64,000 bases of DNA from a virus. Lineage: Duplodnaviria; Heunggongvirae; Uroviricota; Caudoviricetes. Positions 6,872 through 59,697 of the stretch are shown here, piece after piece. A program made the translations under genes and the position numbers. Below the pieces are notes generated by a model. The model made no database searches, was not told the origin of the DNA, and worked only from the letters and a program-made list of their open reading frames with translations. The stretch lies in IMG/VR virus record IMGVR_UViG_3300011337_000358; one strand, written 5' to 3'. Position 1 is the stretch's first letter. Each line of letters opens with the position of its first letter.

Positions 6872-7141
6872 ATGATAAATAGTATACAAAGGACATTTAT
6901 TATGAAAGAACATATCTACACATCATCCAAAGGAGAGAGTTTTTTATCATGGGATGATTGGGCACTCCAAACACTAAACGAAAGTGATTTGAGTGTTTAT
7001 CTTAGCCCCCAAGTAGAAGGTTCAACATTATCTGCTGATAAATTGGCTTTATATGCACGTTGGGTAGACGAAGAACAAATATTAACACACGTTGTTAAAG
7101 AAGATGATGTTATAATACAACAATCAAATGCACTCAAGTAA
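6872..7141 (+). CDS. Hypothetical small protein
   Basis: ORF; an alternative start 'MKEHIY' at 6902 is possible. Confidence 0.4.
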   Translation: MINSIQRTFIMKEHIYTSSKGESFLSWDDWALQTLNESDLSVYLSPQVEGSTLSADKLALYARWVDEEQILTHVVKEDDVIIQQSNALK

Positions 7142-7700
7142 TTTTATTACAGAATCTGCCGTAGATGAGTTAGCAAAAAAACTACCCTCATTGACTAAAC
7201 ACGACTATGATACCATTGATACATTAATGAGAAGTATTGCCAGTAGACATAGCATGAGTGGTAATGCATTACATGATTTGTTTGTAAAAAAATATAAAAG
7301 AACACCCGATAACTGGATTAAACATAAATTAGACGAAGGTGATGATTCAGATTTGCAACAAGAAGTTGATAAATTCTGCGATTGGGCATGTAAACGATTG
7401 CATATAAAATCTAAACCTGAAATTGAACTCAGTATGGATACTGAAGAAGCACAAAATAATCATCATACAGGTGGTCATCAAATGGGCGCTGATAGTATTT
7501 GGGTATATGTAAATAATCGTAACCTAGTTGATATACTACGCACAGTATTTCATGAATTGGTTCATGTGCGCCAAGGTGAATTAGATATGATTAAGCCGGG
7601 TGATAGTTACCCAGGTAGCCCAATTGAAGCAATGGCAGATATGCTTGCGGGCAAATACATCAAAATTTATGGTGAACAGAACCATCATATCTTTCAATAA
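7128..7700 (+). CDS. Hypothetical HExxH zinc-metallopeptidase-like protein
   Basis: 'VFHELVHVRQGE' HExxH motif. Confidence 0.45.
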   Translation: MHSSNFITESAVDELAKKLPSLTKHDYDTIDTLMRSIASRHSMSGNALHDLFVKKYKRTPDNWIKHKLDEGDDSDLQQEVDKFCDWACKRLHIKSKPEIELSMDTEEAQNNHHTGGHQMGADSIWVYVNNRNLVDILRTVFHELVHVRQGELDMIKPGDSYPGSPIEAMADMLAGKYIKIYGEQNHHIFQ

Positions 7701-20304: not shown

Positions 20305-20985
20305 ATGAGTTATAATAAAACAAAAACAGATCCAGAGTTGGGTCAACGAGTACACGAACATCTAGTTAAGATGGGTGTTGAAACTCCCACTAATCCAAAC
20401 AACTATGACCGTAAAGAAAAGATAGATCATATTGAAGCGCATTTTACACACATTATGCGTATCTTGGGTCTTGACTTAACAGACGATAGTTTGATTGAAA
20501 CCCCTAAGCGTGTTGCCAAGATGTATGTCAACGAAATCTTTTGGGGACTTGACTATGACGCATTCCCTAAATGTACAACAGTTGACAACAAGATGCAATA
20601 CAACGAAATGGTTGTAGAGCGTAATGTTAACGTTCAATCTAACTGCGAACATCATTTTGTAGTCATCGATGGACTAGCTACTGTAGCTTATGTCCCTAAA
20701 CAAAAAGTTCTAGGGCTTAGTAAGATAAACCGTATCGTAGAATATTTTAGCAAAAGGCCTCAAATCCAAGAGAGGTTAACAGAGCAAATTTTTCACACCT
20801 TACAGTTCATCCTTGAAACAGAAGATGTTGCAGTTATGATTGATGCACAACACTATTGTGTAAAATCACGTGGTGTAGAAGATACGGGATCTAGTACTGT
20901 TACTTGTCGTTTAGGTGGCGGTTTCAAATCAGATCCTGCGGCAAGACAAGAGTTTTTACAGATTGCTAACAAAGGTTGCAAATGA
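20305..20985 (+). CDS. folE: GTP cyclohydrolase I (FolE)
   Basis: 'QSNCEHHFVVIDG' matches FolE 'CEHHLVPF'. 'GLSKINRIVEYFSKRPQIQERLTEQI' matches the FolE C-terminal block. Confidence 0.9.
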   Translation: MSYNKTKTDPELGQRVHEHLVKMGVETPTNPNNYDRKEKIDHIEAHFTHIMRILGLDLTDDSLIETPKRVAKMYVNEIFWGLDYDAFPKCTTVDNKMQYNEMVVERNVNVQSNCEHHFVVIDGLATVAYVPKQKVLGLSKINRIVEYFSKRPQIQERLTEQIFHTLQFILETEDVAVMIDAQHYCVKSRGVEDTGSSTVTCRLGGGFKSDPAARQEFLQIANKGCK

Positions 20986-21113
20986 TTATTACAATATTAG
21001 TTACAATAGCAGTAATAATAGCTATTGTTATAATGATTGCTACGATGCCAAATGCTAGTAGATGTAACGGAGACTGCAATCAAGGTCGTAACTGTACTTG
21101 TAGGGAGCAATAA
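20982..21113 (+). CDS. Small hydrophobic Cys-rich membrane peptide (43 aa)
   Basis: 'MIITILVTIAVIIAIVIMIA…CNGDCNQGRNCTC'; ATGA-coupled to folE. Confidence 0.35.
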   Translation: MIITILVTIAVIIAIVIMIATMPNASRCNGDCNQGRNCTCREQ

Positions 21114-21331
21114 TGGCACTGATATATAAAGAAGTAGAAGTTGATATTGATCTGAGCGATTTTGATACTGACGAATTAGTTGAAGAATTGGAAAACCGTG
21201 GCTCAGGTGTTATGGACTACGATGACGGCAAGGAAGTACTACAGTCGATTTACGAAAAACGTAGACTTGGACAAGACTATCAGCAAGAACTAGACCAATT
21301 AATTTGGTTAGGATTAGGGAGAGTTGTATGA
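21113..21331 (+). CDS. Hypothetical small acidic protein
   Basis: ORF. Confidence 0.45.
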
Positions 21332-21522
21332 TGAAATTTAAATTAGGTGACATGGTTAAAAAAGTGTCTGGTTCACAATGGCATGGAAAAGTAGTTGGTA
21401 CATACTCAACTGAGTTAACGCCTGAAGGATATGCAGTTGAGAGTCATACAGAAAAAGGTTCTGTACAAATATACCCTGCAAAGGCTCTTGAGTTATGGGA
21501 GTTGAATAATGGGATTTCGTAA
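21328..21522 (+). CDS. Hypothetical small protein
   Basis: ORF with ATGA overlap. Confidence 0.45.
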
Positions 21523-21745
21523 ACAAATGGACTACAATGCAGTACATCATCAAATCTATATGAGTGGTGTAGAATTACATAGTAATTACAATGATGGTTA
21601 CAATCAGTTTGAAATCAAAAAAGATTTACATCGTATCAAGTGGTTGTTAGATGAGATTATGGCTGACAGCCCTACATTTGCAGGGGAAGACGAATTCTTA
21701 AAAGAACATGAACAAACTAAGATGTGGAGAACTCTTTCAAAATGA
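21509..21745 (+). CDS. Hypothetical small protein
   Basis: ORF. Confidence 0.45.
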
Positions 21746-22215
21746 TTTTCAATCACATTAAAAAACTCAAACAAGATGGAAAGAAGATAGGTATTACTTT
21801 TAGTACATTCGACCTACTTCACGCAGGTCATATTGCTATGTTAAGTGAAGCAAAAAATCATTGTGATTATCTTATTTGTGGATTACAAACTGACCCCACG
21901 ATTGATCGACCTGAAACAAAGAATAAACCCATTCAAAGTATCGTAGAACGACAGATTCAACTTGCGGCTTGCCGCTATGTCGATGAAGTTGTTGTTTATC
22001 AAACTGAACAGGACCTTATTGACTTGTTACTTATTCTACCACTAGATGTTCGCATTTTGGGTGTAGAGTATGCAGATAAAGACTTTACCGGAAGATATGA
22101 AGGTAGTGAGCGTGGCATTGAAATTGTATTCAATGGTCGTGACCACAGTTTCAGCAGTAGTAGTTTACGAAAACGGGTAGCTGATGCCCAGATTATTAAC
22201 GTTCTTAATAAATAA
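21742..22215 (+). CDS. Cytidylyltransferase-like nucleotidyltransferase (TagD / glycerol-3-phosphate cytidylyltransferase-like)
   Basis: 'GITFSTFDLLHAGHIAMLSEAK' matches TagD 'VITYGTFDLLHWGHIKLLERAK'. Confidence 0.75.
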   Translation: MIFNHIKKLKQDGKKIGITFSTFDLLHAGHIAMLSEAKNHCDYLICGLQTDPTIDRPETKNKPIQSIVERQIQLAACRYVDEVVVYQTEQDLIDLLLILPLDVRILGVEYADKDFTGRYEGSERGIEIVFNGRDHSFSSSSLRKRVADAQIINVLNK

Positions 22216-22243
22216 CTATAGCGGTCTTTGGACATCATCCCGC

Positions 22244-22271
22244 TTTACAAATTCTGCTGCCTATGCTATAA
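22244..22271 (+). promoter_or_regulatory. Promoter TTTACA-16-TATAAT for queD
   Basis: Hexamers. Confidence 0.5.
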
Positions 22272-22289
22272 TCAACATAGGAGAAATTC

Positions 22290-22772
22290 ATGGCAAACAA
22301 AAAATTCTTTTCAACAAAGACATACAGACAAATAGGTCCTGTCGCTTATCGTCAATGGCGTGCTGACAGTCATTGTAACTTAATTCATGGCTATGCTATG
22401 AGTTTTCACTTTGAGTTTGAGGCTGATACGTTAGACGCACGTAACTGGGTAACTGACTTCGGTGGATTACGACCTCTCAAAGATAAACTAGAAGAATGGT
22501 TTGACCATACATTACTAGTTGCACAAGATGACCCAATGCGTGAACATCTATTAGAACTAGGTCGTTTAAAGCTAGCTAAAATTACAGAAGTAGAACGTAC
22601 TGGGTGTGAAGGTATTTCTGACTTTTTATATGAATACATTAACACAATTTTTTTGCCTAACTGCGGTAGTGAAGAAGCTAAACGTGTATGGTGCTGTAGA
22701 GTAGAAGTCCGCGAGACTGATAGTAACATGGCAGGACGTAGTGGTCATAGGGAAGATAGAGAGTTTGAATAA
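22290..22772 (+). CDS. queD: QueD / 6-pyruvoyl-tetrahydropterin synthase family protein (CPH4 synthase-like), variant metal site
   Basis: 'HCNLIHGYAMSFHFEFE' matches QueD 'CGRLHGHSFMVRLE' (C-x3-H-G-[HY]). Own promoter TTTACA-16-TATAAT at 22244-22271. Confidence 0.7.
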   Translation: MANKKFFSTKTYRQIGPVAYRQWRADSHCNLIHGYAMSFHFEFEADTLDARNWVTDFGGLRPLKDKLEEWFDHTLLVAQDDPMREHLLELGRLKLAKITEVERTGCEGISDFLYEYINTIFLPNCGSEEAKRVWCCRVEVRETDSNMAGRSGHREDREFE

Positions 22773-23395
22773 TGTTAGAAACAATTTGCGATACATTAGT
22801 TGAAGCATATAAACGCAACTGGATTACCAGTCGTGATGGCAATGTAAGTATTCGTCATCATGATCGGGATCATTTTTACATCACACCCAGTGGTGTGCGT
22901 AAGCAGACAATGCAACCGGATCAGTTTAAGAAGATTCGTATTGTTGGTAGTATGTTATGGGAAGAGCAACCATACACTGATATCAGTGCTAATCTTAAAC
23001 CGTCAGGTGAGCTACCACTACACCTCGGACTACAGCGAAAAATGGGACAGCACAATAATGATGTTAGAGTAGTAGTACATTTACATCCCACATACTGTGT
23101 TGCCGCTATGCACCGCGGCATTGAGTTGAGTAGTCTGGCTAATGACTTTCCTGAACTCAGTCGCTATACTAGCGTGGCACCCAATGTGGGTGATGTGCCT
23201 CCTATTAGCCAGGAACTTGCAGACCGCTGTCATGAAAATTTGGGACTAGATAAGAATGGTACTATTGCTTATGACATTGTAGGTATCAAAGGTCACGGTG
23301 TGGTCGCTATAGATACTAGCCCATGGAGGGCTTTTGAACATATTGAACGATTAGAACATATTTGTCAAATCGTATTAGCATCAGGGAAATATTAA
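22772..23395 (+). CDS. Class II aldolase/adducin-family protein (fuculose-1-phosphate aldolase-like)
   Basis: 'GELPLHLGL' and 'VVHLHPTYCVAAM' match the class II aldolase metal-binding blocks. Confidence 0.55.
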   Translation: MLETICDTLVEAYKRNWITSRDGNVSIRHHDRDHFYITPSGVRKQTMQPDQFKKIRIVGSMLWEEQPYTDISANLKPSGELPLHLGLQRKMGQHNNDVRVVVHLHPTYCVAAMHRGIELSSLANDFPELSRYTSVAPNVGDVPPISQELADRCHENLGLDKNGTIAYDIVGIKGHGVVAIDTSPWRAFEHIERLEHICQIVLASGKY

Positions 23396-23396
23396 A

Positions 23397-23810
23397 ATGT
23401 TAGACTGTATAATTATAGGTGATAGCATTGCAGTTGGTACAGCTATGGCTCGTCCAGAGTGTGTAAGTTATTCAAAAGGCGGCTGGAACAGTTGGCAATG
23501 GAACAAGGATTACTTAGCCAAAGCCTCTGCTCAACCTGCTCAAACTATAATCATTAGTCTTGGAGCCAACGACCACAAGGGTGTTAAGACTGAGCTTGAG
23601 TTACGTAAAATGCGAGAAGCAGTTAAGGGCCAGCGTGTGTTTTGGATCGATCCAGGTCAAGACCGTAAACCTATTCCACACGATGCAATTATTCGCATTG
23701 CTAAAGAATATGGTGATACAGTATTGCCTAGGCCAAAGAATCATATGAGTGCTGACGGAGTACATCCAACTGGTCGAGGTTATAAGATTTTAGGAGAGAT
23801 GGCAAAATGA
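23397..23810 (+). CDS. SGNH/GDSL-family hydrolase (short)
   Basis: Block I 'IIGDSIAVG', block III 'GANDH' and block V 'DGVHPT'. Confidence 0.6.
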   Translation: MLDCIIIGDSIAVGTAMARPECVSYSKGGWNSWQWNKDYLAKASAQPAQTIIISLGANDHKGVKTELELRKMREAVKGQRVFWIDPGQDRKPIPHDAIIRIAKEYGDTVLPRPKNHMSADGVHPTGRGYKILGEMAK

Positions 23811-24442
23811 GTTATATTGTAGGATCATTACCTCCTATTAAGTGTTGGATAAAACGTGAATTTCTTTACAACTTTGAAAAAGGTCACGGAGAATTAGAAC
23901 CTGCCATATGGGTAAGTCTTAAAGCATTACGTGGACAAGTGTTTCGTATTGAATCATTATTACCCAATTACGGAGCACTCTACGATAAACTGCCCATTCA
24001 TGCCTATGTATGGCAAGACAACTACACAGGCAATCTACCTATAGATACTTTACAACTCTGGGACTGCATGGGTTATCGCTTTACTATCATTGAAAAAATA
24101 GGTTTACGTAATCTAGGCGTTAAGTTCTTGGGCAAAGATAAAGAATGGCATCACGGAACTTATTTATTTACAGTAGATTTTTGTGCTGATGGAATGGATG
24201 TAGATACAGGTTTTACTGAAGTAGCAGAAGAACACAAGTCGTTTAATTTTATTAGATTAGAAAATGGACAGTTTGCTTGTCAACCCAATAATCGATGTTT
24301 GTGGTACGACCAAAGTTTGATTTCAGGTACAGTGAAATTTCCAGACTTTAAAGCCGCACAGACCATATTTACAGTAGATGGTACTCGCAAGTGGAGTGCA
24401 GGAGATGATTGGTTTTATTCTATTGAGGAAAAAAATGAATAG
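23807..24442 (+). CDS. Hypothetical protein
   Basis: ORF. Confidence 0.5.
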   Translation: MSYIVGSLPPIKCWIKREFLYNFEKGHGELEPAIWVSLKALRGQVFRIESLLPNYGALYDKLPIHAYVWQDNYTGNLPIDTLQLWDCMGYRFTIIEKIGLRNLGVKFLGKDKEWHHGTYLFTVDFCADGMDVDTGFTEVAEEHKSFNFIRLENGQFACQPNNRCLWYDQSLISGTVKFPDFKAAQTIFTVDGTRKWSAGDDWFYSIEEKNE

Positions 24443-24626
24443 TTTAGAAAAAATATGGGCTAGAGCAACTGGTCATTTAATGGGTAACACTGATGATGAT
24501 AGACCCGATGTACCTATTCTTACTTTACGAGAAGCAAGAATTGCATTGTTCCTAAAAACTTTCTGGATTATACTACATGTGATAACATGTTGTTTCATCA
24601 TAGCAAATACATTACGTCATTGGTAA
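24435..24626 (+). CDS. Hypothetical small membrane protein
   Basis: C-terminal TM 'FWIILHVITCCFIIANTL'. Confidence 0.35.
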   Translation: MNSLEKIWARATGHLMGNTDDDRPDVPILTLREARIALFLKTFWIILHVITCCFIIANTLRHW

Positions 24627-24629
24627 AAT

Positions 24630-24827
24630 ATGAACAAAAAAATTACAGAACTATGGGAACAGGCCGCTCAACGAGATGACTTACTAGACGAAAAACGGTA
24701 TGAGCATTTTGCTGAATTATTAATTAGAGATTGTGCAAAACAAGTTAATCATCTGGCTAAACAAGGTGGCGGAACTTGGGGCGAAGTCATTCTAGAAAAC
24801 TACAATATAAGTGTATATAAAAAATGA
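24630..24827 (+). CDS. Hypothetical small protein
   Basis: ORF. Confidence 0.4.
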   Translation: MNKKITELWEQAAQRDDLLDEKRYEHFAELLIRDCAKQVNHLAKQGGGTWGEVILENYNISVYKK

Positions 24828-25672
24828 GTCATTTAAAAGTATCAGAATTATTTTACAGTATCCAGGGAGAAGGTCGCTATATGGGAGTGCCAAGTATTTT
24901 CCTAAGAACATATGGATGCAATTTTACATGCGGTGGCTTCGGTATGCCTAAGGGAGAAATGAGTAATGAGAGAGATGTTATCGCAATTAAAGCAGAAGAT
25001 TATACAGATTATAAATCCTTACCACTTGTCAGTACTGGATGTGATAGTTACGCATCTTGGGACCCTCGCTTTAAACATCTTAGTCCTGTTATCTCTACCG
25101 ATTCTATTGCTGACAGTATTATGGATATACTTCCTCACAAGCGTTGGATGGATGAACATCTTGTTATTACAGGTGGTGAACCTTTGCTTGGATGGCAAAG
25201 AGCGTATCCAGACTTACTTTCAAACGAGAAAATGAGAGCATTGAAAGAGATTACATTTGAAACTAATGGCACACAAGAACTAAGTAAAGACCTTACTAAC
25301 TATCTTCATCAATGGAAGATCAGCCGTGAAAATAACGCACTTACATTCAGTGTGAGTCCTAAACTTAGTATCAGCGGTGAGAAGTGGGAAGAAGCAATAT
25401 GTCCACAAGTTGTTCGTCAATATGAAAGTGTTGGCTTTGTATATCTTAAATTTGTTATTGCTACTAAAGAAGATGCGATTGAGGCAGATAAAGCAGTTAA
25501 AGAATTTCGTACAGCTGGATTCAGAGGTCCAATATACTTCATGCCATGCGGTGGTGTAGAAAGTATCTATAATTTAAATGCTAGAAATGTTGCTATTGAA
25601 GCAATGAATCGTGGCTATCGCTATAGTGATAGATTACAGGTGCCTCTATTTAAAAATGAATGGGGGACATAA
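24824..25672 (+). CDS. queE: QueE-family radical SAM 7-carboxy-7-deazaguanine synthase
   Basis: 'ELFYSIQGEGRYMGVPSIFLRTYGCN' matches QueE 'EMFQTLQGEGYFTGVPAIFIRLQGC'. The Cys cluster 'GCNFTCGG' is atypical. Confidence 0.8.
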   Translation: MSHLKVSELFYSIQGEGRYMGVPSIFLRTYGCNFTCGGFGMPKGEMSNERDVIAIKAEDYTDYKSLPLVSTGCDSYASWDPRFKHLSPVISTDSIADSIMDILPHKRWMDEHLVITGGEPLLGWQRAYPDLLSNEKMRALKEITFETNGTQELSKDLTNYLHQWKISRENNALTFSVSPKLSISGEKWEEAICPQVVRQYESVGFVYLKFVIATKEDAIEADKAVKEFRTAGFRGPIYFMPCGGVESIYNLNARNVAIEAMNRGYRYSDRLQVPLFKNEWGT

Positions 25673-25875
25673 TGACAGAAACAAAAAAACGCACAGTGGT
25701 AAGGATGCTTACCTATAGATTGACAGCATGGTTATTCACAATCTTTTGGACTTATCTGTTTACAGGTAATCTAGGTAACTCAGCCGGCTTTGCTACTGCA
25801 TTACATATATTATTAAGTATAGACTATTACATTCACGAACGCATTTGGTTGAGAATCAAATGGGGTAAGGAATAA
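25672..25875 (+). CDS. Hypothetical small membrane protein
   Basis: Two hydrophobic segments. Confidence 0.4.
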   Translation: MTETKKRTVVRMLTYRLTAWLFTIFWTYLFTGNLGNSAGFATALHILLSIDYYIHERIWLRIKWGKE

Positions 25876-25876
25876 T

Positions 25877-26101
25877 ATGCCATTAGATCAAGTCCAATCA
25901 TATGATTACTTTTATGACAAATTGATAGGTACTGAACTTAAGTTTACTTGGCTACCCCAAACTTGTGACATATCAGGTAAGCGTATTTGGTTAAAGTATG
26001 GGTATAGGATGACTAGGATGATTACTGGACCGGGCACACCTGTCTTTGAGTATAGATGGCACGATAAGAATACCCATATTATATGGAAACTAAAAAGGTA
26101 A
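25877..26101 (+). CDS. Hypothetical small protein
   Basis: ORF. Confidence 0.4.
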   Translation: MPLDQVQSYDYFYDKLIGTELKFTWLPQTCDISGKRIWLKYGYRMTRMITGPGTPVFEYRWHDKNTHIIWKLKR

Positions 26102-26105
26102 ATAT

Positions 26106-26285
26106 ATGTATGAATTAAGATATCTTGTCCGAAACGGTTGGGATGGACCTGAACAAGTGTTACAATATAGAACTCAACATGAAGTAACAGACTATAGTGG
26201 CACAGATCCTAAAACAGGTGGATTCATTAGAAAAATAGAATGGACTGAATGGAAGTATGTCCCCACCGTAGATGAAACAAAATGA
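26106..26285 (+). CDS. Hypothetical small protein (59 aa)
   Basis: ORF coupled to neighbours. Confidence 0.3.
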   Translation: MYELRYLVRNGWDGPEQVLQYRTQHEVTDYSGTDPKTGGFIRKIEWTEWKYVPTVDETK

Positions 26286-27631
26286 AATTATACGATAAAC
26301 GAATTGCTTTTTTGATTAGTGACCAACATTTTATACCGCATGGTGGTATAGGTAGTTTTGCTAAAGGCTTTACTGAGATGTGTGGTCGTATCGGGTGGAA
26401 GGTTGATATTATATTAGACAAAGCACCTACTAATTTATTCAGTGATTTAATTATTAGTCTAGGTGCTAACATTGTTTACCCTGATGAACCACTACGATAC
26501 AGTGACCATACTGCTACGTTTGCATTTAGCGATACTATCAACTTTGAAAAGATTATCAACTTCCGTAAAGCAATATTAAAAGCATTTGAAACAAATGTAT
26601 ACGACATGATTGTGTGTAATACACAAGAGGCAATGACTGCTAGTTATGCCATGACGGTTAACAAGTATATACCTGTTGTATTCTATACTCATTTGCACAG
26701 TATGATTTTTCGTGAAAGTCAAGGTAGTGATGTATTTTTAGACAGCTATCACAATTTCTATAACAAACATATGGAGTTTACTGATATCATTATAGGCACA
26801 CAAAGTCAAAAGAACATTGACGAACTAACTAAGTTTGGTGCAACTAACTGTCAGTTATTGCGTATGCCAATGAGTGAACGTGGTCTATTAGAACGATACA
26901 ATGGATCTAAGAAGGGTGTACTATTCATTGGACGATGGGAAGAAGGTAAGAACCCTGAAGCATATATTCGTGTAATGAAAGAATGTAAATTACCATGTAA
27001 GGTAATGACAAATAGTAACGGTGCAAAAAAGTTTGAGAAGGCATTCAGTGACGCAGGTATTACTGATTATGAAATCAAAGCCGGTATTACTGGACAAGAG
27101 AAAGTAGATTTTGTTCGTGGTGCTAATGTATTCTTTATGCCCAGCCTTCGTGAAAACTATCCATTTGCATTTTTAGAATGTCTTGGTCATATGCCTTGTG
27201 TTGTGCTTGATAATCAAGATTGGTCAGACAACTTTGAGCGAGAATACTATCATCAAGTTTCAATTGGTTCAGCAGCCGACATGATTAAAACATTGTATGG
27301 CACAAATCAATTATCTTCAGTATTAGACTATGTGAAACAATTAGATGATGAGGTAGCTCAAGGTTGGATTACATTCTTAGATAATTTTGCAGGCAAGCGT
27401 AGCAACACAAATGCCGCAAAGATTAATACATATGATACAGTTAAGTATAGTGATTATATCAAGGATTTAAATCGTACACATTTAGCACGTGAGGACTTTG
27501 AAAGCGTACTCGCAAACAAATATAAGTTTTTAAATGTCTGCTACACAGATAGTGACACTTACCTAAGCAAAGACCCAACATATAAACCAGTCGAGGAAGA
27601 AACAGCATTAAGTCTGTTTGAAGGATTATGA
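26282..27631 (+). CDS. GT-B glycosyltransferase, family 4-like
   Basis: N-terminal 'ISDQHFIPHGGIGSF' (GT4 N-domain) and C-terminal 'FMPSLRENYPFAFLECLGHMPCVV' (E-x7-E motif). Confidence 0.7.
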   Translation: MKLYDKRIAFLISDQHFIPHGGIGSFAKGFTEMCGRIGWKVDIILDKAPTNLFSDLIISLGANIVYPDEPLRYSDHTATFAFSDTINFEKIINFRKAILKAFETNVYDMIVCNTQEAMTASYAMTVNKYIPVVFYTHLHSMIFRESQGSDVFLDSYHNFYNKHMEFTDIIIGTQSQKNIDELTKFGATNCQLLRMPMSERGLLERYNGSKKGVLFIGRWEEGKNPEAYIRVMKECKLPCKVMTNSNGAKKFEKAFSDAGITDYEIKAGITGQEKVDFVRGANVFFMPSLRENYPFAFLECLGHMPCVVLDNQDWSDNFEREYYHQVSIGSAADMIKTLYGTNQLSSVLDYVKQLDDEVAQGWITFLDNFAGKRSNTNAAKINTYDTVKYSDYIKDLNRTHLAREDFESVLANKYKFLNVCYTDSDTYLSKDPTYKPVEEETALSLFEGL

Positions 27632-28458
27632 AAAAAGTTTTAATTACAGGTAACTCAGGTTACATTGGCAGTCATCTAAGTAAGATGTTAATGGATACAA
27701 TGAAATATGAAGTTCATGGATTAGATATCCGTGACCCGCAATATGCATTGAATAGATTTTATCGTCAAGATATCAATAGACAATTTTCATTAGATGAAGA
27801 ATTTGATGCAGTCATTCACTTAGCCGCATTAGTTAATGTAGGTGAAAGTGAACAGATACCCATTCAATATTATATCACTAACTTAAATGGCACAATGAAT
27901 GTCATTAACAAAGTAAAGACTAAAAACTTTATATTTGCAAGTACGGGTGCCGCAGTTGGTTGCGAAAGTGCTTATGGTATCAGTAAACGTGCCGCAGAAG
28001 ATGTAGTCAAAGAATACTGCACACATCACAATAAAAAAGATTATACTATCTTTAGATTTTATAATGTGATTGGTACTACCGTTGTTCCACCTACAAATCC
28101 AGATGGATTAATGTATAACTTAATGAAAGCACGTGAAACAGGTGAGTTTACTATCTTCGGTAATGACTATGACGTTAGTGATGACGGTACATGTGTGCGT
28201 GATTATGTACATGTGAATGAAATTTGTGACTCATTAGCACAGGCTATCGAAAAGCCTAGTAACCAAATTGAATCATTGGGTCACGGAGTGGGATGGACAG
28301 TTAAAGAGATTGTCGATGAGTTTCAAAAAGTCAATCACGTTGACTTTGAAGTAAAATACGGCCCAAGAAGAAAGGGTGATCTTGCTAGTTCTGTACTAGA
28401 AGATGTTTCACCCTATATGCGTAATCTATATACTATGGATGAGTTGCTTAAGGTTTAA
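27628..28458 (+). CDS. NAD-dependent epimerase/dehydratase (extended SDR; UDP-sugar 4-epimerase-like)
   Basis: Rossmann 'ITGNSGYIGSHL' and catalytic 'YGISK' (YxxxK). Confidence 0.75.
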   Translation: MKKVLITGNSGYIGSHLSKMLMDTMKYEVHGLDIRDPQYALNRFYRQDINRQFSLDEEFDAVIHLAALVNVGESEQIPIQYYITNLNGTMNVINKVKTKNFIFASTGAAVGCESAYGISKRAAEDVVKEYCTHHNKKDYTIFRFYNVIGTTVVPPTNPDGLMYNLMKARETGEFTIFGNDYDVSDDGTCVRDYVHVNEICDSLAQAIEKPSNQIESLGHGVGWTVKEIVDEFQKVNHVDFEVKYGPRRKGDLASSVLEDVSPYMRNLYTMDELLKV

Positions 28459-28459
28459 T

Positions 28460-28933
28460 TTATAGACCAATCTTGGGTGGATACATTGGGCCAGACTTTA
28501 TTCGTTCACCACCGTCAAAGTAACTAATTTCTACTGGTAATTCTTTCCAGCCTAATCTATGTGCAGCCATGATACGATGATTACCTTCGTTTACCCAGGC
28601 ACTGCCATCATAGGCCACATTGATAAAAGGTTTGTATTCTTCACTAGAGTGTGAATGTAATGGTAGCTTGCCGGTGTCCTTCATTATTTTCATAATTGCA
28701 ATAAGATCACCTTGACGCACATTTTGTTGTTCGTTTCGCATACCGGGTATTTGTCTTAGTAAGTTAACAGGAATTTCAACTTTTCTGACAGTAGCAGTTG
28801 TCTTTCCCATGTAGGGCAAACCATTACGATCAGGACTTTTTTGCTTGGCATACGCAATAGCATCGTTTAGCCATTCCTCATTAGGCACATCAACACTAAG
28901 TGTTCCTTCAGTTATAAATTCTTTTGCTCTCAC
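28460..28933 (-). CDS. ParB/sulfiredoxin-superfamily protein with T4-type capsid-targeting N-terminus
   Basis: 'GNHRIMAAHRLGWKELP' matches ParB 'GERRWRAAKLAGL'. N-terminus 'MRAKEFITE|G' resembles the T4 capsid-targeting sequence / gp21 cleavage site. Confidence 0.55.
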   Translation of the reverse strand: MRAKEFITEGTLSVDVPNEEWLNDAIAYAKQKSPDRNGLPYMGKTTATVRKVEIPVNLLRQIPGMRNEQQNVRQGDLIAIMKIMKDTGKLPLHSHSSEEYKPFINVAYDGSAWVNEGNHRIMAAHRLGWKELPVEISYFDGGERIKSGPMYPPKIGL

Positions 28934-29604
28934 ATTGATCCTTTAGAATTAACAAACCAGGGGTCAACTATAACTAATTCTCCATTACTACGTTGCATGA
29001 CATTTTCGGTGTGCAAGTCCCAACCAAATTTGTTTATTCTACCCGATTGATATAATAGTTTCATTACACTAAACAAGGTAGCATACGTCTTATAAAAAGT
29101 AACACCTTGCTGTGTCATTGCATTATCTATAAGTTTAGCCATTTTAGATGATATTGGGCTAGAGAAGAATTTCCAAGTTTCAGGATCAGTTAGTGAAGGT
29201 AAGATTTGTTGCCAAGTCTCACCTGTAACAGCATAGTCACTTAATATCCAGACCATTGCTTCTTCAACACTGTTCTTTTTAATAGGCTGAAGATGTTCCA
29301 TGTCAATTTGTATGTAATCCTCACCGGCAATATCGATTGTATTCATTTCATTAAATATAGGTAAACAAGAAATCTCAGGATGATTTTCACAGAATTCGTA
29401 AAACTTTTTAAATACTTTTTCAGCGTGACCACTAGGATCATCTGGCATTAATATTTTAATCACATGACTAGTATCTTTAGCCCATACTCTTGCATCAGCT
29501 CCGCTACCAATATGTTTGTAACCTAGTGATTTTAAATGCGCGGCAATTTCTTTGAAGGCTGGTCCTGTTGCAGCCTCATCTACTGCAAATTCATTGGCTC
29601 TCAT
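28930..29604 (-). CDS. Protein-kinase-like fold protein with capsid-targeting N-terminus (candidate injected kinase)
   Basis: Gly-rich loop 'IGSGADARVW'. Catalytic-loop-like 'WDLHTENVM' (D-L-H-x-x-N). 'LVIVDPWF' is DFG-like. N-terminus 'MRANEFAVDE|A'. Confidence 0.55.
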   Translation of the reverse strand: MRANEFAVDEAATGPAFKEIAAHLKSLGYKHIGSGADARVWAKDTSHVIKILMPDDPSGHAEKVFKKFYEFCENHPEISCLPIFNEMNTIDIAGEDYIQIDMEHLQPIKKNSVEEAMVWILSDYAVTGETWQQILPSLTDPETWKFFSSPISSKMAKLIDNAMTQQGVTFYKTYATLFSVMKLLYQSGRINKFGWDLHTENVMQRSNGELVIVDPWFVNSKGSM

Positions 29605-29783
29605 TTCTTGCGACCCCTAAACCCTACTGGCATCTGCAAATCATTAACGGGAAACATTGCTTTGAACCACTCATCAGTACCAGGCTTAGCAGTAATTTTG
29701 CTACGGTCTATAGGCACAGAAGATGTAGGTTTTCCTCTATGGTCGGTAACTCCTGCAAGTCTTTTAAGTTGATCTATGTTCAT
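29601..29783 (-). CDS. Hypothetical small protein
   Basis: ORF coupled within the minus-strand operon. Confidence 0.4.
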   Translation of the reverse strand: MNIDQLKRLAGVTDHRGKPTSSVPIDRSKITAKPGTDEWFKAMFPVNDLQMPVGFRGRKK

Positions 29784-30334
29784 AGACTCTTACCCCAGCG
29801 TGTGTTAATCACATTCCAGTTGATAATCTTCCACTGTTCAGCCAAATACTTTTTCTTATCAGCACCGTAGTCTAATATCCACGCATGTTCCCACCAATCA
29901 ACTAATAACAATATATCATTGCGTACTTCATGGTTCTTAATTGTTTTAATTTTACCATCAGTTGCTAAATATACCCACCCACTACCTTGTATCTTCATTG
30001 CTTCAGTTTCAAACTGTGACTTCATATTATCGTATGAGCCAAAATGTTTGTTAATAAAGCCCATCATGGGGCCGTTTGGATTGTTTTTATTTCTTACTTC
30101 ACGGAACTGAGGGAACAATGTATTATGTAAGAATGCACCTGCATAGTTAAATTCTTTATCTCCGATATCTTTGTTATATCTTTCAGCATAGCCATGTGCT
30201 AACTTGCCATAGTGTAAGTCTATAGTGTCTACCGACAAAACCGGACTTAGTTCTTTTGGCTCAAAATTAAGCTGAATGATTTCTATATCTTGAGGTTTTG
30301 ACTTATCCTCAAGTAACTGAATTAAATCACGCAT
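29780..30334 (-). CDS. Fe/Mn superoxide dismutase-like protein
   Basis: C-terminal 'VDWWEHAWILDYGADKKKYLAEQWKIINW' matches SOD 'DVWEHAYYL…Y……INW' (Asp/His metal ligands). 'HYGKLAHGYAERYNK' and 'AFLHNTLF' resemble the SOD N-terminal His blocks. Length is 184 aa. Confidence 0.6.
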   Translation of the reverse strand: MRDLIQLLEDKSKPQDIEIIQLNFEPKELSPVLSVDTIDLHYGKLAHGYAERYNKDIGDKEFNYAGAFLHNTLFPQFREVRNKNNPNGPMMGFINKHFGSYDNMKSQFETEAMKIQGSGWVYLATDGKIKTIKNHEVRNDILLLVDWWEHAWILDYGADKKKYLAEQWKIINWNVINTRWGKSL

Positions 30335-32115
30335 CAGTGTTTCAATAATAATGTAGAAATGATGTTAGGATCGTTAGCACTGATATCACCTTCACCGGGT
30401 GCAACGATAACATTGTACTTCATACCGGCTGGTATTGATTTACGTTTAGCCATGTACTGATTATAGTCTAATATAGAGTTGGCACTTAATCCATACTCTT
30501 TTGCAAGACGATTCTTTAGTTCAGGTAACTTATCAGGTTGTACTTGCCATTGGCCTTCTGACCCCTTAACTAAGTTTTTCTTTTCGTCCTTAACTAATAA
30601 ATCTTGGAACAAGTCATCTGGAACAATACGACTATTCTTAGTTTTATCTAAGTTAGCATCACTTGCCTTAACTTGTTTCTCTTGTGATGTATGAGCACCT
30701 TCACTCCAATTGATAATAAAGTTAGGTGGCTTCTGACCTAATGCGGCACCAGCCATCTTTGTGTAAGCATAGAACTTAGTATCAGGATGCTTTGCAGCCA
30801 TCTTTAATGCCAAGTCTAAATATTCTGGGCTGAAGAAGTCACCAGCATCATGCCAACGAATAGTAGTTTGCCAACCTTTAGGGAATTTCTTATCACCCTT
30901 TTGACCAGCTTGTTCTTCTTTGCTAATCTCACTACTTAATTGATTGAAGAACCCGTCTGGATCATTCAATAGATATGTTAATATTCTTCCGTCACTTTGC
31001 CATGCGTTCTTAAACTGAATTTTTCCGCCCTTCATAGCAAAACAATCTATTTTACATGAGCCTGCGCCCGGGCATGTATTAACAATGATTAGTTTATTTG
31101 TTTGTTCGTCTAGTGCAATACCAGTCAATGCCGCAAAGCCAACGTTGAAGAATTGTTCAAACTCTCCGTTACTATGCTTCATCTTTTCGTTTTGCTTTAG
31201 TAATGATTTAGGGCGTTGTGACAATGTTTTCTTAACTGCATCCTCATCATATGTTGCACCATCTGGACCTAAGTATTCAACTACACTACTACGGTGGATA
31301 TAAGGCATTTTGTATCTATCTGTTTTTGTTTTACCAGATACATATTTTTCATTACCCTTTTTATCTACCTTAACATTACCTGCTTTGTCTGTATCAGGAG
31401 TACCAACAATACGTTTCATGTAATCTTGGAACTCATCGCCACCAAACTCACGGCTACTTGCTGGCAGTTTAGTTGCTTCTTCTAAGCCAGATAGTTTGCG
31501 AATTCTATCTAAGCCTTCCGCCACACCTTCATTTGCACTTTGACTAGCCAATTTATAAATATACGCAGTACCGTTGGGTAATAGATACGTAGTATAATTT
31601 CCTATACCCCTCTCACCCATTTGAGCCTGTTGAATTTTTATCATTTTTGCGCCGCGCGGCGTTGGGCCATCTTTAGGTACCAGCATACCTTTATATTCTT
31701 TGCCTCCATGGTGCACAACTATACCAGTGTCGCTTCGTTCTACTTTTTCTGCTGTATCAACATTTTGATTTGGCATCTGACCACCAGATTTTTCTGCACT
31801 GGCTTGAAATCCTTGTTGAGCCATTTGTTGTGCGGCACTAGGTGACATTTGGCCATCAGCACCAAGACTAACTCTTGCGTGTGCAGAGCCAGCTGACCCT
31901 AACGCACCCATTGCACCTAATGCCATTGCACCTGTTGCGGCTGCTTTTTTCCAATTAATTTCGTCAAGTTGCTCTTCCGTCATACCTTCTTCTGATTCTT
32001 CATCGGGCATATCACCCGCTTTAGTAACGAATTGCTGAGGTGTCATAATTTGGATGCCACTAGGTGCTCCAGGCATTTTTGGCTCTACGCCTTCGAATAG
32101 TTCTTTGAAATTCAT
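30334..32115 (-). CDS. Large internal-protein-like protein (593 aa) with capsid-targeting N-terminus; Alt-like by architecture only
   Basis: N-terminus 'MNFKELFE|GV' (compare T4 Alt 'MELITELFDE'). Gly/Ala-rich linker. Shares 'EEQLDEIN' with ORF 2-955. Confidence 0.5.
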   Translation of the reverse strand: MNFKELFEGVEPKMPGAPSGIQIMTPQQFVTKAGDMPDEESEEGMTEEQLDEINWKKAAATGAMALGAMGALGSAGSAHARVSLGADGQMSPSAAQQMAQQGFQASAEKSGGQMPNQNVDTAEKVERSDTGIVVHHGGKEYKGMLVPKDGPTPRGAKMIKIQQAQMGERGIGNYTTYLLPNGTAYIYKLASQSANEGVAEGLDRIRKLSGLEEATKLPASSREFGGDEFQDYMKRIVGTPDTDKAGNVKVDKKGNEKYVSGKTKTDRYKMPYIHRSSVVEYLGPDGATYDEDAVKKTLSQRPKSLLKQNEKMKHSNGEFEQFFNVGFAALTGIALDEQTNKLIIVNTCPGAGSCKIDCFAMKGGKIQFKNAWQSDGRILTYLLNDPDGFFNQLSSEISKEEQAGQKGDKKFPKGWQTTIRWHDAGDFFSPEYLDLALKMAAKHPDTKFYAYTKMAGAALGQKPPNFIINWSEGAHTSQEKQVKASDANLDKTKNSRIVPDDLFQDLLVKDEKKNLVKGSEGQWQVQPDKLPELKNRLAKEYGLSANSILDYNQYMAKRKSIPAGMKYNVIVAPGEGDISANDPNIISTLLLKH

Positions 32116-32804
32116 TTCTTGTGGTTCCTAATAAATTGTTCTGCTAGCATTACTAATTCTTGCATTTGCTCAATAGATTCACAATGCCATCTACGTAAAC
32201 TCTTATTAATATTGCTGTTTGGATCACGTGCTGTTTTAGCACTTGTACGATGTTTCTTCATACCGCGCATTCTAGCGCAAAAACTAGCACGGCGCTTTGC
32301 GTCCTTGCTACCCTTTTTAATCTTGCTTGGCTTTTTAGTAACTGCTGTTTGAATCTTGCTACCAGGATGACTACGGCGATAACTACTTACAGATTTTTTA
32401 CTCATCCCACCTACACGTTTGTTATTGTGCTTTGACCAATTCTCGCCTTCCGCCACACCTTGACTTAATAATTTTTTAACAGATATTGGACCTGATTGAT
32501 TTTCTGCACCGGTTAAAAATTCATTTCCCCATGGGGTTATCCAACCATCAAATTCAATATCATTGCCTTGAACCATAATATCATTATTACCATCAAGGTT
32601 TTGATATCCATTCAACTCTTTGTACCATTTTCTTAATGATTGTAACTTGTATGGACCTTTGTAGCCTTGTTTTTTCAAAATAGAAATAATTTCCGGAGTA
32701 AATCCAACTGGTTGACCCTCAGATACTTTCTCTTTTTTGCTAATAGCAATAGCGGCTTGTTGTGCTGGATTTGCGGCTTCTGTTAAAATTTCTGTTATTC
32801 TCAT
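32112..32804 (-). CDS. Basic internal-protein-like protein with capsid-targeting N-terminus
   Basis: N-terminus 'MRITEILTE|A'. Very basic C-terminal half. First gene of the minus-strand operon. Upstream 'GATAAATA' (rc of 32860-32867) is T4 late-promoter-like. Confidence 0.5.
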   Translation of the reverse strand: MRITEILTEAANPAQQAAIAISKKEKVSEGQPVGFTPEIISILKKQGYKGPYKLQSLRKWYKELNGYQNLDGNNDIMVQGNDIEFDGWITPWGNEFLTGAENQSGPISVKKLLSQGVAEGENWSKHNNKRVGGMSKKSVSSYRRSHPGSKIQTAVTKKPSKIKKGSKDAKRRASFCARMRGMKKHRTSAKTARDPNSNINKSLRRWHCESIEQMQELVMLAEQFIRNHKK

Positions 32805-32851: not shown

Positions 32852-32880
32852 GTATATATTATTTATCACTTTGGGCTTTT

Positions 32881-55789: not shown

Positions 55790-56995
55790 ATGACCTCTGA
55801 ATCTAAACTAAACCATTGTTCCTTTTGTGGCAATCACAAAGATAAAGTTACTAAACTTATCGTAAGCGAAGATGTTGCTATTTGTAGTGACTGTATTGAA
55901 TTATGCAACCAATTAGTTATTGATGAACTTGTAACCAGTGAATCGGCTAATGTAAAAGAAAACACCATTAATGACCCTCATTTAATTAAAGAGTACCTGG
56001 ATGAGCATGTAATTGGACAAGATTCTGCTAAAACAGTACTGAGTGTGGCTATTGCTAATCATTATAAACGCATTACCTATCCACCAAAAGACTTAGAAAT
56101 TTCTAAAGGTAATGTCTTAATTATTGGGCCTACTGGATCAGGTAAAACACTATTAGCTAAAACAGTAGCAAAATACTTAAATGTACCTTTCATTGTTGCT
56201 GATGCTACTAGTTTAACTGAAGCAGGGTATGTGGGTGATGATGTTGAATCAATGATTAGTATGCTTGTTAATGCCGCAGGTGGAGATCCTAAACTAGCAG
56301 AACGTGGTATTGTGTTTGTTGATGAAATTGATAAGATTGCACGTAAGAGTGAGGGTACTAGTATTACCCGTGACGTATCAGGTGAGGGTGTTCAACAGGC
56401 GTTATTGAAATTAGTTGAAGGCACCGTGTGTCGTATTCCAGCTAGTGGCGGACGCAAACATCCCGGTGGTGATATGCTAGAAATTAATACAAAAAATATA
56501 TTGTTCATTGCAGGTGGGGCATTTGTTGGATTAAAAGAAATTATTTCTAATCGTAAAAACGGTACCAGTATTGGATTTGGGGCAAATATTAAAGAAAATA
56601 AAAAAGAAGGTGAACTAAGCCAAGTAACTCCTGACGATTTGACTAAGTTTGGTATGATTCCTGAGTTTATCGGCCGCTTTACTACTACAGTTAGCATTGG
56701 TGAATTGGGGAAAGATGAGTTAAAACAAATATTAACTTCCGTTAAAAACAATTACATCAAGCAATATCAATATCTATTAAGTATTGATGGTATTGAATTG
56801 AACTTTGAAGATGGTGCTTTGAATCAAATTGTAGATAATTGCTTGAAATTAAAGACCGGAGCACGTGGATTACATACTGAAATTGAACGTGTATTGATGC
56901 CACATATGTTTAATGTCAACAAGTATAAGGAAAATAACGTAAAAGTGATAAATATAAGTCAGGACGCAGTTATAGAACCAAAAATTATGTTATGA
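55790..56995 (+). CDS. clpX: ClpX ATP-dependent protease unfoldase subunit
   Basis: N-terminal C4 zinc-binding domain 'CSFCGN…CSDCIELC'. Walker A '[11 protein letters not shown]'. Length 401 aa. Confidence 0.9.
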
Positions 56996-57319: not shown

Positions 57320-57772
57320 ATGACAAAAACTTTAACCCTTCGTTCCCTCGACATTCCGTCGCTTCATAAATTTGGTATCGGTTTCGATTCAATGTTTGAT
57401 GAATTGCACAGAATTCATTCTCAACAATCCAACACAAACTATCCCCCATATAACATAGTCCAAATTAATGAGGACGAGTATATGATTAGTGTAGCTGTAG
57501 CTGGATTTGGTCTTGATAATCTTTCAATAACAAAAGACAAAAACTTTTTGATTATTGAAGGGAAGGAATATCAATCTGATAGCGAAGAAATCATACCAAA
57601 CTATCTACACAAAGGTATTAGCAACAGAGACTTCCGTCGTGAATTCAAACTTGCAGACCACGTAGAGATAGTGGATGCAAATTTAGAATTGGGTATCCTC
57701 AACGTTCATTTAAAACGTGAAGTTCCTGAAGAACAAAAGCCCAAGTCTATTGCAATTACTTATACTAAGTGA
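57320..57772 (+). CDS. Small heat-shock protein Hsp20/alpha-crystallin family (IbpA-like)
   Basis: 'FRREFKLADHVEIVDANLELGILNVHLKRE' is the alpha-crystallin domain C-terminal block. Confidence 0.85.
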   Translation: MTKTLTLRSLDIPSLHKFGIGFDSMFDELHRIHSQQSNTNYPPYNIVQINEDEYMISVAVAGFGLDNLSITKDKNFLIIEGKEYQSDSEEIIPNYLHKGISNRDFRREFKLADHVEIVDANLELGILNVHLKREVPEEQKPKSIAITYTK

Positions 57773-59689: not shown

Positions 59690-59697
59690 GATAAATA
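59690..59697 (+). promoter_or_regulatory. T4 late-promoter-like motif 'GATAAATA' ~20 nt upstream of the capsid-targeted protein gene
   Basis: 7/8 match to TATAAATA. Same motif in front of the minus-strand capsid-targeted operon. Confidence 0.4.

Follow-up and report, generated by a model that had tools for sequence, protein, structure and literature searches.

We found that a 64,000-nucleotide stretch of viral DNA, referred to here as the window, encodes a 157-amino-acid (aa) protein in which a fold of the ParB/sulfiredoxin (Srx) superfamily follows a 9-residue N-terminal leader, MRAKEFITE, that closely resembles the capsid-targeting signal (CTS) of phage T4. We regard the ParB/Srx fold as highly likely, and the leader is probably a targeting and cleavage propeptide of the T4 type. 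Taking fold and leader together, we propose with moderate confidence that the protein is a head-packaged, host-injected ParB/Srx NTP-binding effector, a reading in which we infer both packaging and cleavage. As far as can be judged from sequence, what is new is a free-standing ParB/Srx module with a T4-type address tag. Two ideas that have been separate so far meet in this gene, namely, the experimentally defined T4 CTS and the computationally predicted delivery of polyvalent modules, and the gene makes the delivery hypothesis directly testable.

A conserved gene at the end of a translationally coupled operon

The open reading frame (ORF) reported in the preliminary description of this DNA exists exactly as stated, including the string quoted from it. 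In the encoded protein, EGNHRIMAAHRLGW corresponds to aa 116 to 129, and GNHRIMAAHRLGWKELP corresponds to aa 117 to 133 (nucleotides 28535 to 28585). The gene starts with GTG, and this codon overlaps the stop codon of its upstream neighbor as GTGA. A search of ~5.8 billion proteins returned at least 120 metagenomic homologs (E ≤ 1e-3), all of them unnamed, and for most of the full-length homologs the alignment covers essentially the full length, with identities of 43 to 98%. Homologs with an ATG start begin at the same first residue (MRAKEF...) as the GTG-started window protein. In an alignment of 50 diverse members, the segment E116-G-N-H-R-I121 is invariant, as are P17, W21, T46, G64, E68, Q69, and R73. 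We conclude that the ORF is a genuine gene because of the number of homologs, the shared start residue, and the invariant motif.

The gene is the last cistron of an operon (Table 1) whose members, as read from the ORF list and domain scans, encode a DUF6321 protein, a GP88-domain protein, an Fe/Mn SOD, a 60-aa ORF product, a kinase-like protein, and the ParB/Srx protein, with the last gene translationally coupled to that of the kinase-like protein. The strand switch at this minus-strand operon is also seen in the GC skew.

Megablast of the locus against 50,697 phage records found no close relative. Among cultured phages, tblastn with the ParB/Srx protein gave only a 31% match, located inside an 1185-aa protein of Dolichospermum phage Dfl-JY45, and tblastn queries with the kinase-like gene, the GP88 neighbor, and the leader family that is most abundant yielded no useful match. 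The family-B DNA polymerase of the window has 44 to 49% identity to its counterparts in Rak2-like jumbo phages (Sinorhizobium phage Phosso, Agrobacterium phage Atu_ph07, Klebsiella phages RaK2 and K64-1, and Escherichia coli phage 121Q), and, on this comparison, the window phage belongs with these phages, which form a jumbo branch (Rak2-like) within the T4 superfamily.

Table 1. Features of the ParB/Srx gene, its operon, and leader-bearing genes elsewhere in the window. Slashes mark predicted cleavage positions.
Feature	Position	Strand	Details
ParB/Srx-fold gene, complete CDS	28460..28933	-	157 aa, 17.7 kDa, pI 8.8; leader plus module; MRAKEFITE/G
Leader MRAKEFITE	28907..28933	-	aa 1-9; putative capsid-targeting propeptide with I-x-E protease site, then G10
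N-terminal subdomain of mature module	28802..28906	-	aa 10-44; VDVPNEEWL..., helix 19-31, invariant P17 and W21
ParB/Srx-fold core	28514..28801	-	~aa 45-140; box-I-like NVRxxDL...GKLP segment plus GNHR box
E116-G-N-H-R120 motif	28574..28588	-	Invariant in 50 members; presumed phosphate/Mg-binding site
Kinase-like protein	28930-29604	-	MRANEFAVDE/A; phrog_15752, weak Kinase-PolyVal
Fe/Mn SOD	29780-30334	-	MRDLIQLLE/D, looser variant
GP88-domain protein	30334-32115	-	MNFKELFE/G, looser variant
DUF6321 protein	32112-32804	-	MRITEILTE/A
Six-gene operon, candidate packaged proteins	28460..32804	-	Start/stop overlaps of 1-4 nt
Promoter-like element GATAAATA	32860..32867	-	~55 nt upstream of the first ATG in the operon; weak evidence
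190-aa HExxH (zincin-like) peptidase	7128-7700	+	MHSSNFITE/S, looser variant
474-aa protein, unrelated	59716-61140	+	MRALEFLTE/A

A compact ParB/Srx fold with an EGNHR box

An AlphaFold (AF2) model of the 157-aa protein (pLDDT, 92.2; pTM, 0.85) has the characteristic alpha/beta fold of the ParB N-domain, Srx, and SerK/SbnI, with residues 1 to 8 disordered (pLDDT, <50). The top structural matches of this model were ParB/Srx structures only (SbnI, sulfiredoxin, SerK, PadC, pNOB8 ParB, and KorB), and Noc was also found among its matches, together with KorB and ParB. In BFVD, homologs from "uncultured Caudovirales" have 57 to 74% identity to the window protein, and 2/3 are labeled "ParB/Sulfiredoxin." The profile phrog_8071 ("ParB-like partition protein") matched aa 62 to 136 of the window protein (E = 7.9e-4); across the 50 aligned members, ParB-like PHROG profiles matched 23 (phrog_8071), 13 (phrog_1033), and 2 (phrog_723) proteins, with a best E value of 3.5e-5.

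The preliminary description had assigned the protein to this superfamily and had named Pfam PF02195 as the family to search. At E ≤ 1, that search matched neither the window protein nor a single one of the 50 homologs. Scans of the window protein against Pfam, NCBIfam, and PADLOC returned nothing, the Pfam scan of the 50 homologs returned noise only, apart from one weak ddrB-ParB match and one weak DUF6551 match, and sequence and profile searches of the PDB returned only nonsignificant matches to SbnI (E of ~1.2). The superfamily assignment holds despite the PF02195 result because of the structural matches of the model, the PHROG profile matches, and the BFVD relatives. The clade to which the window protein belongs is missed by PF02195-based surveys and would therefore extend the rising number of noncanonical NTP-binding ParB-fold proteins by a new and compact one of 148 aa.

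The G-x-x-R phosphate-binding box of the superfamily (GERR/GCHR/DGxHR) is present as EGNHR, which was aligned with DGVHR of SbnI ("vidGvhR") in the nonsignificant PDB profile match. We presume that EGNHR forms a phosphate/Mg-binding site and is the counterpart of GERR in ParB, DGVHR in SbnI, and GCHR in Srx. The earlier comparison to a GERR-like ParB box was right as to position, in that the segment aligns with the GxxR box of the superfamily; the residues read GNHR and not GERR. The best structural matches, SbnI, SerK, and sulfiredoxin, use ATP and have a [DE]-G-x-H-R motif at the same position, whereas their identity to the window protein is about 19 to 21% over 78 residues and their biological context is different. 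The HR dyad and these nearest structures favor nucleotide binding of the ATP type. The nuclease/CTPase activity that had been suggested for the protein is not established, given a GNHR motif in place of GERR and closest structures that are ATP-using enzymes and not CTP clamps. The additional subdomain of ~35 aa at the start of the mature module (aa 10 to 44) is without a counterpart in the aligned ParB/Srx structures.

The same module occurs in polyvalent proteins

When a profile of the mature module without its leader (profile positions ~7 to 157) was searched against 1.84 billion cluster representatives, the module was found in 966 clusters formed at 50% identity. Many of these module-bearing clusters are multidomain proteins of 1 to 4.4 kaa, several of them between 2 and 4.4 kaa. 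One such protein (P0398) has SNF2-type helicase, ART-PolyVal, and LPD39 domains by Pfam, and three others (P0362, P0366, and P0336) have ART-PolyVal domains; an ART-like domain directly adjoins the module in 13 of the 15 ART-containing relatives. By their Pfam domains, the giant proteins that bear the module are bona fide polyvalent proteins.

Packaging and injection have been predicted for polyvalent proteins, and ParB domains are a recognized component of them (Iyer, Burroughs, Anand, de Souza, and Aravind, 2017; PMC5512222). In the same work, the activity predicted for the ParB modules of polyvalent proteins is that of an NTP-regulated DNase, and P1 DdrB, a protein with a ParB/Srx domain, is noted to become part of the P1 head (PMC5512222). 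The preliminary description had called the packaging of such a protein unusual; packaging of ParB-like domains already has precedent in P1 DdrB and the polyvalent proteins and is for that reason not unusual in principle, and the very module of the window protein lies inside polyvalent proteins. As in those proteins, the ParB/Srx module is accompanied here by modules of the ART, kinase, GNAT, metallopeptidase, and lysozyme types, all of them presumed to be injected and to act early as effectors. In contrast to them, the window module is a free-standing 157-aa protein with a leader of its own and not a domain of a giant polypeptide. It also differs from the DdrB-ParB family by the extra N-terminal subdomain, and membership in the DdrB-like ParB family (PF18763) was rejected, with 1 of 50 members matching at an E value of 0.051 and an hhalign probability of 0.2% against P1 DdrB.

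These associations bear on what the protein would do once delivered. It is possible, if on the unlikely side, that the protein is packaged and acts not as a nuclease but as an ATP-dependent phosphotransferase on a host small molecule or protein, in the manner of SerK, SbnI, and sulfiredoxin, or as a nucleotide-binding accessory subunit for the neighboring kinase, GNAT, and ART modules. The translational coupling of the ParB/Srx gene to the kinase-like gene, recurrent GNAT fusions (among them a 452-aa leader protein with a GNAT-like region and a C-terminal ParB module), and the adjacency of ART-PolyVal domains described above all speak for this alternative, as does the ability of ParB-fold proteins to bind ATP or GTP (PMC12704722). 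We rejected two specific assignments. Sulfiredoxin function, suggested by the SOD neighbor, is opposed by the replacement of the catalytic Cys with an invariant Asn118, and a SerK/SbnI kinase (~240 aa) would have a C-terminal substrate-binding domain, whereas the window protein is without it and ends ~20 residues after the fold. Moreover, no substrate can be inferred for a phosphotransferase, and the published prediction for polyvalent ParB modules is the NTP-regulated DNase (PMC5512222). That kinase, GNAT, and ART modules are coupled to it suggests that the module serves as a partner or regulator.

The leader is shared by unrelated proteins and resembles T4 propeptides

In the T4 sequences, ipII and ipIII start with MKTYQEFIAE/A, to which MRAKEFITE/G of the window protein is closely similar, gp23 contains FLTE/AEIGG, and gp24 starts with MAKINELLRE/S. 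The cut positions in gp23 and gp24 (FLTE/A and LLRE/S) are well established. The closest known counterparts of the window leader are in T4 IPI, IPII, and IPIII, together with the propeptides of gp24, Alt, and gp23, where a CTS is processed by the prohead protease gp21, and the leader shares the core of MKTYQEFIAE. Like the T4 CTS, it has L/I-x-E as its last three residues, with a small residue next, and, as with the T4 internal proteins, it is found on unrelated, fast-evolving cargo; it differs from the T4 CTS in being one residue shorter and in beginning with M-R-A. Residues 1 to 10 of IPIII are enough for packaging in the T4 head, and gp21 cuts after L/I-x-E to remove the IPIII leader (PMC9026906); the string MKTYQEFIAE is also present in PMC8442874. 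A literature search for the leader strings found no paper.

The leader or a variant of it is present on at least four to seven proteins of the window (Table 1), including a 474-aa protein for which the scans gave no family match. Among the 82 window ORFs of at least 100 aa, the pattern ^M[RK]..[ED][FLIV].{1,3}E was matched by 4, compared to 0.07 expected and a maximum of 2 in 2000 resamplings. A degenerate DNA pattern for MRAxEFITE was found at 120 or more loci in IMG/VR viral contigs; all 132 of the matches listed open ORFs, 126 of these ORFs are at least 70 aa long, and by our own estimate the chance of a match is ~1e-11 per position. Because of the excess over expectation and the opening of an ORF by every match listed, we consider the leader to be real and not a product of chance. 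The 132 listed matches comprise 115 distinct 27-mers in which all synonymous codons are used, and this free synonymous variation therefore points to selection at the level of the peptide.

The family logo reads M-R-A-x-E-F-I-T-E, and in 52% of the sequences the next residue is G, S, or A. Among the matches listed, the exact leader is found on at least 13 unrelated protein clusters. Some of these are muralytic enzymes of GH19/LysM-like and SLT-like types, and others are a Nudix-like protein, an HExxH peptidase, and fusions of GNAT-like with kinase-like regions, with domain labels that are motifs read from the sequences. In multidomain relatives, the leader is at the N terminus of the polypeptide wherever the ParB module lies; in a protein of 1161 aa (P0302), for example, the leader is N-terminal and the module is at positions 1010 to 1160.

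Head genes are absent from the 64-kb window. The annotation of RaK2 includes T4-type gp20, gp21 (prohead core scaffold and protease), gp23, and gp55, and a homolog search with RaK2 gp21 returned only close relatives of RaK2. Local tblastn of the loci that carry the leader found, at one locus (L067), a gp21-like protease, a scaffold, and gp23, directly followed by a 67-aa protein that starts with MRASEFITE; at a second (L119), gp23 with two leader genes; and at four others, homologs of the tail sheath or gp15. In a metagenomic Rak2-like head cluster (L134), a small ORF between the portal and Peptidase_S77 genes starts with MRANDLLLE and occupies the place of the T4 core proteins gp67 and gp68, and its RaK2 equivalent starts with MLFKDIFE. 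The capsid proteins of this clade have (I/L)(T/L)E/G about 20 residues in. Because the protease, scaffold, and gp23 genes lie on leader contigs, phages that use the leader appear to have a gene for the enzyme by which such sites are cleaved in T4, and for the window genome we infer the same from those other contigs. The capsid-targeting signal of the preliminary description is well supported by circumstantial evidence, namely, how nearly the leader matches the T4 CTS, its presence on unrelated proteins, and its linkage to T4-type gp21 protease genes; the signal stays putative.

The shared N terminus bears as well on the unlikely alternative that the protein is a cytoplasmic, nonpackaged ParB-like nuclease, NTPase, or regulator made during infection. 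The N terminus could then be an initiation or coupling element for ATGA-overlapped cistrons, a tag for the ClpX-like AAA+ unfoldase encoded in the window at 55790 to 56995, or a recombination "cassette junction." The start codon is in an ATGA overlap with an upstream stop codon in 58 of the 126 leader genes listed, and the AGA Arg codon, which creates this overlap, is used in 109 of the 132 matches listed. In addition, no T4-type late promoter (TATAAATA) was found upstream, this sequence being depleted (2 found versus 9.1 expected). However, the leader is conserved as amino acids, with synonymous variation at every codon, and the motif runs 6 residues past the ATGA overlap to end in the exact T4 gp21 cleavage tripeptide. 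The leader also appears unlike the N-terminal degron motifs of ClpX, its cargo of muralytic enzymes and polyvalent modules is as expected of proteins delivered by the virion, and leader genes are located inside head and tail gene clusters. These observations favor a packaged protein over a cytoplasmic one.

Proposed route from the operon to the host

In the pathway that we propose for the packaged effector, the protein is a stand-alone copy of the ParB/Srx module of polyvalent proteins, fused to a 9-residue propeptide that would work like the T4 CTS and translated from the last cistron of a coupled operon whose products bear similar tags. The leader would dock the protein on the scaffolding core of the assembling prohead, where a T4-type Peptidase S77 (gp21-like) prohead protease would cut after Glu9 (I-T-E/G), and the predicted new N terminus would be G10 (GTLSVDVPNEEWL...). 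The basic mature protein of 148 residues would be kept in the head with the DNA, and its pI of 8.8 is compatible with residence on DNA. The protein would probably be injected into the host along with the phage DNA at infection. There, the E-G-N-H-R nucleotide-binding pocket may make it an NTP-dependent enzyme or switch, most likely acting on DNA (as a nicking enzyme or nuclease) or in phosphate transfer and aiding early takeover or counterdefense.

The comparison to T4 extends beyond the leader itself. The window phage belongs to the same superfamily as T4, and contigs with the same leader encode a Peptidase_S77 protease, scaffold, and gp23. In contrast to T4, the leader is found on far more kinds of cargo, which are enzymatic (ParB/Srx, kinase-like, GNAT, HExxH peptidase, lysozymes, Nudix, and possibly SOD), multidomain leader cargo reaches ~1160 aa, and the phages that use this leader are uncultured Rak2-like jumbo phages. 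We suggest tentatively, and with somewhat less than even confidence, that MRAxEF(I/L)TE marks a large, modular, individually addressed "cargo arsenal" of this widespread clade of phages. The modules that other phages string together in giant polyvalent proteins (ParB/Srx, kinase, GNAT, zincin peptidase, muralytic enzymes, Nudix, and perhaps SOD) would here be split, and each would be loaded into the head by a T4-type propeptide. The ParB/Srx clade would then be a nucleotide-gated partner of modules that modify proteins or DNA (ART, GNAT, and kinase) and not a partition protein.

A canonical ParB-type partition or DNA-clamp protein that uses a CTP switch in phage segregation or transcription, like ParB, KorB, and Noc, is highly improbable: the PHROG names ("ParB-like partition protein"), the presence of KorB, Noc, and ParB among the structural matches, and the N-terminal-domain fold with box-I-like and box-II-like segments in the same order (NVRxxDL...GKLP...EGNHRIMAA) agree with it, but we rejected it given a length of only 157 aa with no helix-turn-helix (HTH) or dimerization domain found by Pfam, GNHR in place of GERR, an absent box III segment, no ParA among the neighbors scanned, a module that lies beside ART domains in polyvalent proteins and not in par loci, and best structural matches that are ATP-using enzymes.

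If the leader works as it does in T4, this 9-residue tag would predict the injected proteome of a large, uncultured jumbo-phage clade from metagenomes. It would then also yield a catalog of candidate early effectors and counterdefense enzymes, as well as a portable tag with which foreign proteins could be loaded into large capsids.

Promoter-like octamer and an HExxH peptidase with a leader variant

The octamer GATAAATA upstream of the operon is weak evidence for a promoter because it is not enriched in the window overall (6 found versus 5.9 expected). The same octamer lies 19 nt upstream of the ORF at 59716, which bears the leader, and it precedes a GTP cyclohydrolase gene as well. As a separate observation, the C-terminal region of the 190-aa HExxH peptidase closely resembles that of a protein family with the exact leader (represented by L010).

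Arrays of leader-bearing genes in IMG/VR

Among the IMG/VR matches listed, 126 ORFs of at least 70 aa carry the leader, the N-terminus resembling the T4 capsid-targeting propeptide, and 58 of these start in a 4-nt ATGA overlap with the preceding stop codon, with a further 23 overlapping it by 1 nt (81 of 126 together). The tagged genes thus arranged form long, translationally coupled arrays. The largest leader-bearing cluster comprises 78 of the 126 proteins (about 125 aa each; viral-contig loci L004 to L123), and its genes are often paired in tandem. A C-terminal S-P-x-x-x-F-K-G-Y-(K/P)-(K/R) motif is common to several of its representatives, and tblastn found no counterpart of the cluster in cultured phages. 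Members of the cluster may be internal head proteins that are present in abundance. We also found that two larger proteins, from loci L048 (456 aa) and L102 (442 aa), combine the leader with a GH19/chitinase-like muralytic domain (GRGYIQLTG) and further modules, namely a second, different ParB-like domain (HEGRNRMIALQEL) in L048 and a LysM-like segment in L102.

Partners of the ParB/Srx module

We compared 15 ART-containing polyvalent relatives of the ParB/Srx module (P0398, P0362, P0366, P0336, and 11 others). In 13 of them the ART-PolyVal ADP-ribosyltransferase domain directly adjoins the module, at a spacing of 10 to 65 residues, and this adjacency suggests that the two form a functional dyad. 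In the window, the ParB/Srx gene is translationally coupled to the kinase-like gene, whose product bears the leader MRANEFAVDE/A (the slash marks the putative cleavage site). In loci L041, L045, and L059, homologues of this kinase-like protein occur as fusions with GNAT domains, and the fusion proteins bear the leader.

Other N termini of the leader operon

The superoxide dismutase (SOD) of the leader operon has a leader-like N terminus, MRDLIQLLE/D, by which it may be a packaged protein. A second recurrent N-terminal motif may also be present, judging from the forms "..LKRLAGV..", "MDKELKRILQLSGI..", and "..LKQLAGIL.." in small proteins of this operon and of L134, a metagenomic Rak2-like head cluster; such a motif might serve as a tag of another type.

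Promoter-like elements and other window genes

All six GATAAATA octamers in the window are sense-oriented and lie between genes or at gene ends, and two have leader-bearing genes directly downstream. The T4 late-promoter octamer TATAAATA is rarer in the window than expected by chance (2 found versus 9.1 expected). In some IMG/VR loci, ATAAATA lies merely 5 to 8 nt 5' of the ATG, a spacing that hints at near-leaderless transcripts. The plus-strand gene cluster that includes GTP cyclohydrolase I resembles a pathway for hypermodification of DNA with 7-deazaguanine and/or sugars.

Coordinates of features in the window and in L134
Feature	Source	Position	Strand	Remarks
GATAAATA octamer	Window	32860-32867	-	
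GATAAATA octamer	Window	59690-59697	+	
GATAAATA octamers	Window	6874, 20236, 39445, 56947	+	
Gene cluster	Window	20305-28458	+	GTP cyclohydrolase I, PTPS/QueD-like, QueE-like radical SAM, cytidylyltransferase, class II aldolase, glycosyltransferase, NAD-dependent epimerase
Kinase-like protein	Window	28930-29604	-	phrog_15752, T7 gp0.7-type; weak Kinase-PolyVal
Candidate second motif	Window	29601-29783	-	
Candidate second motif	L134	6534-7346, 8171-8644, 14986-15249		
Fe/Mn SOD	Window	29780-30334	-	Sod_Fe_C, E 4e-24
ClpX-like AAA+ unfoldase	Window	55790-56995	+	ClpX zinc finger
Hsp20 small heat-shock protein	Window	57320-57772	+
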